Source of the DNA: a virus
Lineage: Duplodnaviria > Heunggongvirae > Uroviricota > Caudoviricetes
Strand: one strand, 5' to 3'
Virus record (IMG/VR): IMGVR_UViG_2563366883_000005
Location: 1-17,580 of that record
DNA length: 17,580 nucleotides
The notes under the pieces were generated by a model. The model saw nothing but the letters and a program-made list of their open reading frames with translations, had not been told where the DNA came from and did no database searches. This document shows, piece by piece, positions 5,371 through 7,473 of this stretch. The translations under genes and the position numbers were made by a program. Position 1 is the first letter of the stretch, and every line of letters begins with the position of its first letter.

Positions 5371-5394
5371 ATAAAAAACCCAGCCGAAGCTGGG
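5371..5394 (-). terminator. Intrinsic terminator ending the arc-ant unit, abutting the K SD
   Basis: Minus strand CCCAGC-TTCG-GCTGGG followed by TTTTTTAT, then CAGGAG and the K ATG. Confidence 0.55.
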
Positions 5395-5413
5395 TTTGTT
5401 AAGTTGTCAATTG

Positions 5414-6328
5414 TCAGTAGCGATGCAGTGAAGGCGGCAACTCTTTGTTCTTAAGCCTTTCCCATGCCAGAAGGTTCGTCGGCCCGTCAGGCTCATAAAT
5501 ATCTATATCCCGCGTGTGATTAATTAAAACGCCCCTCGCCCTCCCGATGGTATACGAGAACTCATAGCCGTAGTCGTGGCATATGCCGGAATAGCCAGAC
5601 TGAATCAGTTTTAATGCGGGATACAACTCACGGAACAATGCCTGTGAGCGGTTAGCATAATCCCATAGCCATACAAGGCTGTCTGTTTCTTTTGCGGAAA
5701 GCTCGTTGGTGCTCTTCTCTTGTTTGCCGATTAACTCTCCTTCAAGCGGAACGCGAGCAGCAAGTGACAGAGCTTCGGTAAACTGCTCCTCGCTGATTTC
5801 TTTGTACGAACATCCAAAATGTGATTTCAGTGACGACCACATGGTGATCATCGCCTTCGCCTGTTTTTCCTTTGGCAGAGACTGACCGCGACTCATGACG
5901 AGTTGTTTAATGGCTTCCTGCTGTTCAGTAGTGATTTTCCCCGGCAACGCCTTTTTAGCTTTCAGTGTATTTCCGTAAGACCCCGTTTTACGAATGGATG
6001 GCAAAACTTCAGCTGTCACCCATTTGCGGAATTTGTGCGGGACTGAACCTTTATTGACGGCATCGCGGCAACGCAGAACCAATGTATACATACCTGATTC
6101 GCTCACAATGCTTAAATTCTGCTCACCACCAAGGGTGTAACTTAAAGTTACTCCCTTTTCATCGTCATCAAGTGCAGTAAGCGCCTTGCGTGAGTTAGTC
6201 AGATTTAAAGCATCACAAACATCTTTTGCTACAAACCACGGCTCACCGCACTTGTTGATGACGCGGATTTCACTGTCGCCGAATTTGAAGATGGTGAAAT
6301 CGTTTTGTGCCTTTGCTATACTTTTCAT
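5414..6328 (-). CDS. ant: Antirepressor, Bro-N/AntA-type N-terminal domain (P22 Ant-like)
   Basis: 304 aa. N-terminal Bro-N signature ([54 protein letters not shown]). Lies directly downstream of a small RHH gene and opposite an Mnt homologue, the P22 immI gene order. Confidence 0.8.
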
Positions 6329-6401
6329 GTCAATATTTCCTAATCCGATTTGTTGATACCGAAGCCCTGACTGTTACAGCAGTTGGGGCTTCAACTTTTT
6401 A
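6329..6401 (+). ncRNA. Candidate sar-like antisense RNA covering the ant translation initiation region
   Basis: Plus-strand extended -10 (TGcTATACT, 6314..6322) inside the first codons of ant. About 70 nt downstream is a plus-strand hairpin (GAAGCCC...GGGCTTC, 6361..6392) followed by CTTTTTA. Same geometry and size as P22 sar (established knowledge). No expression data. Confidence 0.3.
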
Positions 6402-6531
6402 GGCTGCGAATAAGACGCTGCACTATTTCTGAATTTAAAGACCTGCCCTCCTCCTTAGCCTTTTCCTTCAATTTTTCTTTAATCTCTGGCGGGATACGAA
6501 TCCCTAATGGAGCGATATCTCTAACTTTCAT
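6391..6531 (-). CDS. arc: Arc-like ribbon-helix-helix repressor
   Basis: Track ORF 6391..6654. Functional start taken as ATG 6531, giving 46 aa MKVRDIAPLGIRIPPEIKEKLKEKAKEEGRSLNSEIVQRLIRSLKS with the Arc/Mnt RHH signature (NGRS.NSEI). The longer N-terminal extension would overlap the divergent mnt start. Confidence 0.6.
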   Translation of the reverse strand: MKVRDIAPLGIRIPPEIKEKLKEKAKEEGRSLNSEIVQRLIRSLKS

Positions 6532-6641
6532 TTCTTTCCCAATTGCTACACCGTGATAACTAAATACTACACCGTGCTTATTTAAAGTCAAAGTTTTTTT
6601 GCCTACACTGTGTAGCAATGCTACAGCGTGCAGGAGGAAAA
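6532..6641. promoter_or_regulatory. Divergent promoter/operator region between arc-ant and mnt
   Basis: Minus-strand sigma70-like promoter TTGACT (plus 6586..6591), 16 bp, TAGTAT (plus 6564..6569) facing arc. Four copies of CTACA(C/G)(C/T)GTG at 6546-6555, 6567-6576, 6603-6612 and 6621-6630. The third lies in a near-palindrome CTACAC-T-GTGTAG, and the second overlaps the -10. Confidence 0.5.
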
Positions 6642-6890
6642 ATGAAAGGTGCAAGAGATATCAGTCCCTTGGGAATTAGGATTCCAGACTATTTAAAGAA
6701 ACGCATTCAGCAGGAAGCGGATAAAAACGGCAGATCAATGAACTCAGAGATTGTGCTTATCCTTCAAAAACATGTTGATAATCTTGATGGCCCTCGCTCA
6801 CTTGAAGGATTCGCTAACCAAGAAGCTGACAAATTCAAAGAGGCGCTGCTTGAGACGCTAAAGACCATGTATGGTAAGGATGAAAAATAA
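6642..6890 (+). CDS. mnt: Mnt-like repressor (RHH N-terminal domain plus C-terminal oligomerisation helix)
   Basis: ATG 6642 with SD AGGAGG 5 nt upstream. The 82 aa sequence MKGARDISPLGIRIP..NGRSMNSEIV..LETLKTMYGK resembles remembered P22 Mnt (ARDDPHFNFRMP..NGRSMNSELL..FDTLKDLYKK) along its length. Confidence 0.7.
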   Translation: MKGARDISPLGIRIPDYLKKRIQQEADKNGRSMNSEIVLILQKHVDNLDGPRSLEGFANQEADKFKEALLETLKTMYGKDEK

Positions 6891-7426
6891 TGCTGCACAC
6901 AATTCATTTCTTATGCCCCGTTAACACTGCCACTGTTGGGCAACTTCAGAACCACTGTCTCACCGCATTATCTCAAGGCGCAACTGAATTAAATATCCAT
7001 ATATCAAGTCAGGGAGGGGAAACTGCCGCTGGCTTTACTGCGTATAACTTTCTTAAGTCACTCCCTGTTACCGTTAGAACTCACAACATAAGCAATGTTG
7101 AATCCATAGCTAATATCGTTTTCCTGGCTGGCTCAGAACGTTTCGCAAACCCATTATCAAGATTCCTGTTACATCCTCTATTATGGGTCTTTGCCACCCC
7201 AGCCGCCGACCATGCCAGATTGAGAGAGTACGGGAAATGCCTCGATAACGATCTTGATCGCTTCGTTGAGACGTTCAATATCGACATCGGAACCCATATT
7301 AGGTGGGCATCCCTGATAGCAGACTCGACCATTTTGGATGCTAACAAGGCTCTTGAGCATGGCATAATTAATTCCATAAAAACTGCAAGGCTGGCATCCA
7401 ATCAGGCAAACTGGTGGGTTGTTTGA
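6890..7426 (+). CDS. ClpP-fold (S14-like) protein lacking the N-terminal axial region; putative Ser and His retained, Asp position occupied by Asn
   Basis: 178 aa, translationally coupled to mnt (TAATG overlap). Manual alignment to E. coli ClpP: IHISSQGG vs INSPGG; ESIANIVFLAG vs AASMGAFLLTAG (Ser aligned); RFANPLSRFLLHP vs RFCLPNSRVMIHQP (His aligned); KALEHGIINSI vs EAVEYGLVDSI (Asp replaced by Asn). The protein begins about 25 residues into the ClpP fold. Confidence 0.65.
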   Translation: MLHTIHFLCPVNTATVGQLQNHCLTALSQGATELNIHISSQGGETAAGFTAYNFLKSLPVTVRTHNISNVESIANIVFLAGSERFANPLSRFLLHPLLWVFATPAADHARLREYGKCLDNDLDRFVETFNIDIGTHIRWASLIADSTILDANKALEHGIINSIKTARLASNQANWWVV

Positions 7427-7449
7427 TGGGTAAATCATGATTACTCCTT

Positions 7450-7473
7450 ATAAAAAACCCACCTGACGGTGGG
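7450..7473 (-). terminator. Intrinsic terminator downstream of L
   Basis: Minus strand CCCACC-GTCA-GGTGGG followed by TTTTTTAT, starting 9 nt after the L stop codon. Confidence 0.5.

Follow-up and report, generated by a model that had tools for sequence, protein, structure and literature searches.

A P22 immI-type antirepressor cassette with a ClpP-like passenger gene between tail genes L and K of an Escherichia coli lambdoid prophage

In phage P22 the immunity I region (immI; NC_002371 14519-16035) has the order 16, sieA, (orf59a and mnt on the opposite strand), arc, sar, ant, terminator, 9, and late transcripts cross it on the way to gene 9. Read-through from this "ant moron" into the downstream tail gene has already been discussed (PMC2629481). 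Other antirepressors, namely GfoA and GfhA of the Gifsy prophages, AntC of N15 and Ant of SPC32H, are trans-acting proteins that inactivate CI-type repressors (PMC3121763). Of interest here is also PpClpP1 from Pseudomonas plecoglossicida, a chromosomal ClpP paralogue studied without consideration of a prophage context; it is devoid of the N-terminal axial loop, does not bind ClpX, and forms mixed tetradecamers with the host ClpP, whose activity is thereby raised (PMC12900304). A literature search yielded PMC2629481 and PMC12900304 as the relevant papers and none describing or testing an ant island between tail genes L and K or the phage PhiR12.

The window (the whole stretch of 17,580 nucleotides that was analysed) comes from an E. 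coli lambdoid prophage with its tail operon on the minus strand. Between L (7483-8181, GC 0.574) and K (4622-5359, GC 0.599) it contains an island of 2,123 bp (5360-7482) with a computed GC content of 0.447 (44.7%). The island carries ant and an arc-like gene on the minus strand, a divergent mnt homologue and a ClpP-like gene on the plus strand, and a hairpin terminator at either end. The first-pass annotation had described a lower-GC island of roughly 2.1 kb with a P22 immI-like module, in which an Arc-like ribbon-helix-helix (RHH) gene and a Bro-N antirepressor gene on the minus strand face a plus-strand mnt homologue; its size, composition, coordinates and strands were all borne out. It had also stated that L and K overlap in lambda, which is wrong, the two genes being annotated there at 13429-14127 and 14276-14875, respectively. 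In uninterrupted relatives of the prophage L and K are spaced by 5-10 nt, and they are contiguous in 73 of the 77 IMG/VR loci in which L is 93-98% identical to the L of the window. This synteny comparison, which had been suggested as a check, confirms the insertion. Matches to genomes without the island end at position 5340, and the first six codons of K (5341-5359, minus strand) have been exchanged with the island, K beginning with MLYSNI here versus MTQTESAI in the uninterrupted relatives. Judged by these comparisons, the insertion between L and K is genuine and has the marks of a moron: deviant GC, contiguous L and K in relatives, and predicted promoters and terminators.

Both border hairpins have their U-tract on the minus (tail-operon) strand. 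The L-side terminator (7450-7474; GCCCACC-GUCA-GGUGGGU plus a U6 tract) lies directly 3' of the L stop codon, and the same hairpin also borders a 1,665-bp island type and P22-like immI regions. The K-side terminator (5372-5395; ACCCAGC-UUCG-GCUGGGU plus U6) lies 3' of ant, is followed immediately by the ribosome-binding site and start codon of K, and is conserved in P22 as well as in the islands of Stx phages. A fold of −16.9 kcal/mol is predicted for the 54 nt of the minus strand (5413-5360) that contain this hairpin. A terminator at each end had been claimed at first pass, and hairpins with U-tracts are indeed present at both, but both serve the minus strand: at the 7450-7474 hairpin, which is 3' of the ClpP-like gene, a plus-strand U-tract is absent. 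As transcription of the minus strand is terminated at either border, late transcripts should have to be Q-antiterminated to cross the island and reach K, I and J, comparable to the crossing of immI in P22.

The path of the tail operon crosses three terminators (8202-8220, 7450-7474 and 5372-5395). One could read from this that the island has been selected mainly for dosing the tail-tip genes K, I and J, late transcription being attenuated by the two minus-strand terminators and by convergent mnt transcription and antirepression being secondary. This reading takes up the linked expression of tail and antirepressor genes suggested in the first-pass annotation, and the ant moron of P22 has been suggested to influence the dosage of the tailspike in a like manner (PMC2629481). 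We consider it unlikely, since the 73 of 77 close relatives with contiguous L and K build the same tail and since what is conserved in the island is regulatory proteins, not terminators alone. Moreover, Q-modified RNA polymerase is terminator-resistant in lambdoid phages and would pass these sites.

The ant gene (5414-6328, minus strand) encodes a protein of 304 amino acids with an N-terminal Bro-N domain (Pfam, 2.5e-20) and a C-terminal P22_AR_C domain (2.2e-25). In BLASTP its residues 134-304 are 61% identical to residues 138-300 of P22 Ant (E 2e-69). The homology is confined to this C-terminal half, the N-terminal domain being Bro-N and not P22_AR_N; the repressors targeted by Ant may therefore differ from those targeted in P22. 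Upstream of ant, at 6330-6396 on the plus strand, there is a homologue of the antisense RNA sar (Rfam RF00262), which scores 69.4 bits versus a gathering score of 43 (E 1e-13) and matches over the full length (1-68). Towards its 5' end this RNA is complementary to the ribosome-binding site of ant, and its terminator, a 3' hairpin (6361-6392) with a U-tract, overlaps the arc stop. The predicted fold is −28.3 kcal/mol; stem 1 deviates from the Rfam consensus sequence yet still pairs. A Psar-like promoter (6294-6322, plus strand; GTGAAA, 17-nt spacer, TATACT, extended TG) is found within the first ant codons, at a position equivalent to that of Psar in P22, and is placed for a predicted transcript start at about 6329-6330. 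Because the sar homologue and its promoter are present and the C-terminal half of Ant is 61% identical, the identification as immI is firmer than could be seen at first pass.

The first gene of the ant operon (6391-6531, minus strand) encodes an Arc-like RHH protein of 46 amino acids (Pfam Arc 2.7e-12) with PDB matches to Arc (5.5e-5 to 7.7e-5) and pArc (6.4e-10) and with 43% identity to P22 Arc in BLASTP (E 1.8e-9). An 87-aa ORF starting with TTG was rejected as the arc-like gene; RefSeq calls the 46-aa ORF. The Mnt homologue (6642-6890, plus strand; 82 amino acids), for which RefSeq gives a CDS with the same coordinates and for which a 90-aa ORF from 6618 was rejected, has an RHH N-domain and a C-terminal helix. 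It matches Pfam Arc (7.4e-8), its best PDB match is the Mnt repressor 1mnt (E 1.6e-5, residues 4-76 aligned), and in BLASTP it is 33% identical to P22 Mnt over 83 amino acids, C-terminal helix included (E 6e-13). Its Pectobacterium orthologue matches Pfam Repressor_Mnt. Homology to P22 Mnt, Arc and Ant was thus found for each of the three proteins for which it had been proposed.

The two RHH genes diverge from a control region (6532-6641) with four operator-like sites that have the common core CACnGTG. Motif searches located CTACACCGTG at 6546-6555 and 6567-6576, the palindrome CTACACTGTGTAG at 6603-6615 and CTACAGCGTG at 6621-6630. The CACnGTG-type motif gives five matches within 85 bp, as the palindrome matches on both strands, and one other match (at most one mismatch) elsewhere in the 17.5-kb window. 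Unlike in P22, the Arc-like and Mnt-like proteins have one and the same recognition strand, the beta-strand RDI(A/S)PLGIRIP, and either protein is therefore a candidate for binding each of the sites. A Pant-like promoter (6564-6591, minus strand; TTGACT, 16-nt spacer, TAGTAT) is directed towards arc and ant. Its −10 element and the operator-like site 6567-6576 overlap, and its TTGACT core and flanks are conserved with E. coli P22-like phages. A consensus scan of the region did not find Pmnt, and inspection by eye gave only weak candidates. Promoter-like sequences are as numerous here as expected from shuffling (4 versus 4.0), and the individual promoter calls therefore rest on position and conservation only.

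We propose that the island is very probably a functional ant moron of the immI type, a self-contained secondary-immunity cassette working like P22 immI and carrying one lysogen-expressed passenger gene. What the analysis demonstrates is homology, anatomy, distribution and mosaic structure; DNA binding by the RHH proteins, Ant activity, late read-through and any function of the ClpP-like protein are inferred. By analogy with P22, a Mnt-like tetramer would in the lysogen occupy the CACnGTG sites overlapping the −10/start region of Pant and thus keep arc and ant off, while mnt and the translationally coupled ClpP-like gene would be transcribed on the plus strand. Upon infection or loss of Mnt, Pant would fire, and the Arc-like protein would then shut it again. 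Ant would bind and inactivate CI-type repressors, those of other prophages included, and sar, starting inside ant, would pair with the ant ribosome-binding site and so block translation of Ant. Control of the antirepressor by the SOS response, as in Gifsy and N15, was considered and rejected, since no LexA box was found: the search returned only two CTG-N10-CAG strings, both within terminator hairpins and neither SOS-box-like.

Degraded ant morons are known in P22-like phages, e.g. in HK620 and Scho1 (PMC2629481), and the island could in principle be such a decaying, non-functional remnant. This is most improbable, as the four ORFs, each with a ribosome-binding site, are intact, and so are sar, the promoter-like and operator-like sites and the terminators. 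Across 11 complete genomes of E. coli the ORFs show 99.4-100% identity, and the whole island is 99.7% identical in the phage records PhiR12_1, 4 and 5, for which E. coli K-12 and C are the listed hosts.

The ClpP-like gene (6890-7426, plus strand) encodes an N-terminally truncated protein of 178 amino acids (Pfam CLP_protease 1.6e-11), whose ATG overlaps the mnt stop by one base (TAATG). The coupling to mnt reported at first pass is therefore real, but the gene is not an extra feature of this locus: the mnt-ClpP pair is the standard arrangement in the immI regions of E. coli and Pectobacterium P22-like phages, between which the TAATG overlap is kept at 79% protein identity. The nearest relative with a solved structure is PpClpP1 (PDB 9UXT; E 2e-35, 41% identity over 172 amino acids, Ser and His aligned). 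In an alignment of 24 family members the Ser72/His95 dyad is invariant; the canonical Ser-His-Asp triad is absent from it, the third position being Ser, Ala or Thr, and the family has a one-residue deletion at the position of the RDR Asp of Mtb ClpP1. The protein starts at about position 37 of the 182 positions of the Pfam model, and its alignments to ClpP chains start at their residues 43-57; missing from it in these alignments is the N-terminal axial loop, where ClpX or ClpA docks on canonical ClpP. With its length of about 180 amino acids, N-terminal truncation, Ser-His dyad and similarity to 9UXT it belongs to the short PpClpP1-like paralogues. On the opposite strand an 85-aa ORF (7181-7438, minus strand) has a strong ribosome-binding site just after the L terminator; it was taken for a side effect of the sense frame because the homologues of Serratia and Proteus lack it, those of Pectobacterium and Klebsiella having retained it.

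Homologues of the ClpP-like protein make up 518 representative clusters at E ≤1e-10. Homologues with 52-71% identity are found without an RHH or ant gene beside them: between lysis and terminase genes in Klebsiella, Serratia and E. coli prophages, between N and erf/ssb in Proteus, and in a myovirus-like prophage of Chromobacterium. These solitary homologues lie antisense in other moron slots. The ClpP-like gene is thus most likely an independent, lysogen-expressed moron and not a component of the switch.

A protease integral to the switch would degrade Ant or Arc, or re-tune the host ClpP to destroy leaked Ant, and so act in the lysogen as a post-translational lock alongside Mnt. The conservation of the one-base overlap with mnt between E. 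coli and Pectobacterium phages is in line with such a function, as are the predicted expression from the transcript of the lysogenic repressor and the ability of PpClpP1 to mix into tetradecamers with host ClpP (PMC12900304). We nevertheless hold it to be unlikely, since the homologues occur alone in several prophages and since P22 and the Stx-type L-K islands operate without a ClpP-like gene.

RHH proteins are typical antitoxins, and weak Pfam/NCBIfam matches to FitA- and RelB-like RHH families were obtained. The overlapping mnt and ClpP-like genes, a putatively lysogen-expressed pair at a moron position, might accordingly be taken for an independent toxin-antitoxin or anti-phage defence pair travelling beside arc-ant. 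This is quite unlikely: the RHH protein is homologous to Mnt over its full length, C-terminal helix included, and faces arc-ant across common operator-like sites; PADLOC gave no match for Ant, the Arc-like, Mnt-like or ClpP-like protein, or for the porin. The toxin-antitoxin reading was rejected because the putative partner is found without an RHH gene in Klebsiella, Serratia, Proteus, Chromobacterium and E. coli prophages.

Returning to the ClpP-like gene as an independent moron, we tentatively suggest, as an idea still more doubtful than probable, that the short N-truncated ClpP-like proteins are a widespread, unrecognised class of prophage morons. They would be expressed in the lysogen, in this prophage from the mnt transcript and in others from a promoter of their own antisense to lytic operons, and by analogy with PpClpP1 they would co-assemble with host ClpP and re-programme ClpXP/ClpAP proteolysis. 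If true, the benefit could be superinfection exclusion or stabilisation of lysogeny, and the coupling to mnt would tie the ClpP-like activity to the "immI off" state. In many prophages of enterobacteria the family occupies positions classic for lysogenic conversion, which offers a testable lead on the natural role of PpClpP1-type proteins. The immI part of the island adds little that is new.

The same L-K slot is used elsewhere. Of 5,426 complete E. coli genomes, about 480, most of them STEC, have an ant island with two RHH genes there, and so do many Stx phages, among them WGPS6, WGPS8 (both Pankowvirus), 2851, YYZ-2008 and 1717. The first-pass annotation had named as contradicting it the same insertion with the same gene content as the common arrangement in lambda-like tail operons; these islands bear this out in part. 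Nor is the location in a tail operon distinctive, for P22 immI is itself inside the late operon. The arrangement had been presented as novel, which is unsupported, as the position, the mnt-ClpP pair and the embedding in a late operon are all known elsewhere. Its position and its gene content are found again in other prophages of E. coli, and the island is therefore an ordinary mosaic variant. In the mosaic map its borders and the ant 3' half trace back to the L-K island common among Stx phages. E. coli P22-like phages are the source of two further segments, one consisting of sar and the 5' half of ant, the other of the ClpP-like gene and the 3' end of mnt. The remaining segment, arc/operator/mnt 5', represents a specificity allele that is rare.

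As a hairpin-bounded cassette, the secondary-immunity switch of P22 thus moves together with sar between short-tailed P22-like and long-tailed lambda-like phages; L-K is a recurrent moron slot and the island a clean example of modular exchange. Where an E. coli strain harbours many lambdoid prophages, the island is relevant to their cross-induction, because single STEC genomes carry up to 13 places that match a K-ant junction query.

Of the described systems, the Gifsy, N15 and SPC32H antirepressors resemble the window's Ant in their proposed mode of action on CI-type repressors; they are LexA-box controlled, whereas the island has RHH repressors and an antisense RNA. PpClpP1 shares with the ClpP-like protein a length of about 180 amino acids, the missing axial loop, and the conserved Ser and His without the canonical Asp; its third triad position is Pro instead of Ser, Ala or Thr.

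The Stx-phage and STEC islands have the slot, the border hairpins, an ant 3' half of about 91% identity and a divergent Arc-family pair in common with the window. They differ in having no ClpP-like gene, other RHH proteins and another ant N-terminus; sar was not detected in them at the Rfam threshold, and regulation is therefore not uniform across the L-K slot. The immI regions of E. coli and Pectobacterium P22-like phages (phiv205-1, EC.P3, an Es_ST80 prophage and a P. parmentieri prophage) agree with the window in the C-terminal part of mnt, the ClpP-like gene and the hairpin (98-99% identical DNA), in the presence of sar and in the identical mnt-ClpP overlap. They are located between the DNA-injection genes and the tailspike gene instead of between L and K, have different Arc/Mnt DNA-binding ends and operators, and contain an additional small ORF between arc and ant.

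The closest likeness in organisation is to P22 immI itself. The window has the order L, hairpin, (ClpP-like gene and mnt on the opposite strand), arc, sar, ant, terminator, K, which, as claimed at first pass, reproduces that of the annotated P22 region. Common to both are the orientations, the Mnt, Arc and Ant homologues, the terminator after ant, a sar RNA that covers the ribosome-binding site of ant and has its promoter within that gene, and a place in the late operon ahead of a tail gene, ant lying in the sense and mnt in the antisense direction. The two differ in setting (the L-K boundary of a lambda-type long-tail operon versus gene 16/sieA to tailspike gene 9), in the N-terminal domain of Ant (Bro-N versus P22_AR_N), in the operators (four CACnGTG sites and one common recognition strand versus distinct Oarc and Omnt) and downstream of mnt (ClpP-like gene versus orf59a). 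By its sequence the island is a true homologue of immI, apparently a complete copy of the P22 immunity I switch, with a ClpP-like passenger.

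The window comes from a lambdoid prophage of E. coli, and E. coli SCU-106 (NZ_CP053234) is 100% identical to it across the island. Its head-tail operon is encoded by the minus strand, in the order tape measure H (10082-13324), M (9748-10089), OmpC-like porin (8378-9541), L (7483-8181, 57.4% GC), the island, K (4622-5359, 59.9% GC), I (4044-4724) and J (260-3841). The lower-GC island noticed in the first-pass annotation is real: from the L stop (7483) to the K start (5359) the gap is 2,123 bp with 44.7% GC. That L and K overlap in lambda, as was also stated, is not borne out by the lambda annotation; in uninterrupted relatives the spacing is 5-10 nt. 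The island replaces six codons at the start of K and also supplies the ribosome-binding site of that gene. A second low-GC (0.40) moron (8182-9747) separates M and L, a normally overlapping pair; it contains the 387-aa OmpC-type porin (Pfam Porin_1, 1.8e-139), which has a minus-strand terminator of its own a short way upstream of L. Of 79 close IMG/VR relatives, 7 have a porin in the M-L slot.

The predicted gene content, a minus-strand Arc-like repressor and Bro-N antirepressor with a divergent plus-strand Mnt, was found in full by Pfam, PDB and BLASTP. On the minus strand lie ant (5414-6328; Pfam Bro-N 2.5e-20, P22_AR_C 2.2e-25; PHROG 245 'anti-repressor Ant' 1.5e-103) and the Arc-like gene, whose real extent is 6391-6531 (46 aa; Pfam Arc 2.7e-12), and on the plus strand the Mnt-like gene (6642-6890, 82 aa) and the ClpP-like gene (6890-7426; Pfam CLP_protease 1.6e-11), the mnt stop sharing bases with the ClpP-like ATG in a TAATG overlap. 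Hairpin terminators are present at both borders, one following L (7450-7474) and the other following ant (5372-5395); their U-tracts are on the minus strand and they therefore stop transcription in the direction of the tail operon. The proposal that each end has its own terminator holds to this extent, but the hairpin 3' of the ClpP-like gene has no plus-strand U-tract. Antisense to the ClpP-like gene is an 85-aa ORF (7181-7438, minus strand) with an AAGGAG-N5-ATG start directly after the L terminator; the sequence GGGTTTTTTATAAGGAGTAATCATG closely resembles the terminator/K-start junction GGGTTTTTTATCAGGAGTTCTCATG, and a counterpart is kept in the Pectobacterium and Klebsiella homologues, not in those from Serratia or Proteus. 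The RefSeq name of the Arc-like repressor is 'YlcI/YnfO family protein' (NCBIfam NF041551, 33.2 bits versus a cutoff of 30); because of this match, YlcI and YnfO, two small prophage proteins of K-12, may be remnants of Arc-type RHH repressors.

Comparison with the annotated P22 genome established that the island is truly homologous to immI, the secondary-immunity region of P22, as had been supposed. By BLASTP the Mnt-like protein, whose top PDB match is 1mnt, shares 33% identity with P22 Mnt across 83 aa (E 6e-13), C-terminal helix included; the Arc-like protein shares 43% identity with P22 Arc; and residues 134-304 of Ant, its C-terminal half, are 61% identical to residues 138-300 of P22 Ant (E 2e-69), whereas the N-terminal domain has been exchanged for Bro-N. 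The strongest immI signature, absent from the earlier annotation, is a full-length match to the Rfam model of sar RNA at 6330-6396 on the plus strand (69.4 bits against a gathering score of 43; E 1e-13). Within the first codons of ant lies a promoter-like site with an extended -10 (6294-6322); together with a predicted sar terminator hairpin (6361-6392) it shows the same geometry as Psar and sar in P22. Stem 1 departs from the Rfam consensus in sequence, with pairing retained, and stem 2 is almost identical to it. The model finds sar in P22-like immI regions; in Stx-type L-K islands it was not found at the Rfam threshold.

Upstream of arc lies a Pant-like promoter (6591-6564, minus strand; TTGACT, 16-nt spacer, TAGTAT). 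The 110-bp divergent region contains four operator-like sites with a CACnGTG core: two copies of CTACACCGTG (6546 and 6567), 21 bp apart and both overlapping the -10 and start region of this promoter, the palindrome CTACACTGTGTAG (6603-6615) and CTACAGCGTG (6621). Elsewhere in the window the motif has a single match at ≤1 mismatch. The Arc-like and Mnt-like proteins have the DNA-reading strand RDI(A/S)PLGIRIP in common and, judged from their sequences, probably read the same half-site, unlike in P22. Pmnt could not be located, and a search for a LexA box found none. By analogy with P22 genetics, the Mnt-like protein bound to the Pant-overlapping sites would silence arc-ant in the lysogen, with mnt and the ClpP-like gene expressed. 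Upon infection or loss of Mnt, Pant would fire; the Arc-like protein would then turn it off, and Ant would inactivate CI-type repressors. By pairing with the ribosome-binding site of ant, sar would keep Ant from being translated.

The island is a mosaic. Positions 5200-5962 (K 5' end, terminator and ant 3' half) match Stx-type L-K islands at ~91% identity, 5987-6400 (ant 5' half and sar) match EC.P3 at 96%, and 6798-7473 (mnt 3' end, ClpP-like gene and hairpin) match E. coli P22-like phages at 98-99%. The specificity segment 6400-6798 (arc, operators and mnt 5' end) has no match among these three; among 5,426 E. coli genomes just 19-20 carry it, as do three phage records, PhiR12_1, 4 and 5. 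The hosts given in these records are E. coli K-12 and C, and the island therefore appears compatible with making working tails.

The coupling of a ClpP-fold gene to mnt is correct, but not unusual. In the E. coli P22-like phages phiv205-1 and EC.P3, one Es_ST80 prophage and one Pectobacterium parmentieri P22-like prophage the order is ClpP-like gene, mnt (opposite strand), then arc, (small ORF), ant and tailspike, with the identical mnt/ClpP-like overlap in all four. The Es_ST80 prophage (locus L086) has a Panacea-domain gene (3639-4088) ~480 bp from the ClpP-like gene on the side away from mnt, which suggests that the immI flank is a hotspot for cargo of the defence or toxin-antitoxin type.

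The closest solved relative of the ClpP-like protein is PpClpP1 from Pseudomonas plecoglossicida (PDB 9UXT; E 2e-35, 41% over 172 aa), with Ser72 aligned to Ser73 and His95 to His96. PpClpP1 lacks the N-terminal axial loop, has a Ser-His-Pro 'triad' and forms a wide-pore tetradecamer of low activity that does not bind ClpX; it co-assembles with canonical ClpP, raising the activity of the latter (PMC12900304). Among 24 family members Ser72, His95, Asp107 and His108 are invariant, and Ser, Ala or Thr occupies the third position of the triad. The family comprises 518 representative clusters at E ≤1e-10; PADLOC gave no match, and in the literature searched no paper links the short PpClpP1-type family to prophages. 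Homologues with 52-71% identity (loci L087-L096 and L099-L101) are solitary, run antisense to the genes around them and occupy classic lysogenic-conversion slots. They lie between Rz/lysis and terminase in prophages of Klebsiella, Serratia and E. coli, between N and the recombination genes erf/ssb in a Proteus prophage, and in a myovirus-like Chromobacterium prophage. Because of these solitary homologues in other slots, we read the gene as a putative lysogen-expressed moron, captured into the mnt transcript in immI regions, and not as part of the switch. The remaining interest lies in this moron family.

Insertion between L and K is recurrent: ant and two divergent Arc-family genes occupy this slot in Stx phages WGPS6, WGPS8, 2851, YYZ-2008 and 1717. 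The K-start/terminator/ant-3' junction was checked in 60 evenly spaced rows from 1,798 matching records; 16 of these had it at full coverage and 84-89% identity. This extrapolates to ~480 of 5,426 complete E. coli genomes. Most of them are O157 or other STEC, and a single genome can have as many as 13 matching places. In IMG/VR, L and K are contiguous in 73 of the 77 closest L homologues, two have this island and two have a 1,665-bp island that lacks the ClpP-like gene. Synteny thus makes the island a minority state, yet a common one. The ant 3' end and terminator (5373-5700) are also 99% identical to 'antB' of other Stx phages (records Nil2, PA27, PA28, AU5Stx1 and Stx2a phages), at another genome position (~18-27 kb in the records) not adjoining K; the ant cassette therefore also moves between lambdoid genome regions.

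Placement in a late operon had been taken as distinctive; this recurrence and P22 itself speak against it. The island is a mosaic representative of an established module, in a slot of a type already known, and its claimed distinctiveness is unsupported. Q-modified late polymerase would have to cross three minus-strand terminators, after porin (8202-8220), L and ant, before reaching K-I-J. In P22 the order is gene 16, sieA, (orf59a and mnt, opposite strand), arc, sar, ant, terminator and tailspike gene 9; immI is likewise inside the late operon, with ant sense, mnt antisense and a tail gene downstream, and the island therefore keeps the P22 topology instead of departing from it. Casjens and colleagues call the P22-type cassette the 'ant moron' and have already discussed how it affects late transcription reading through into the tailspike gene (PMC2629481).
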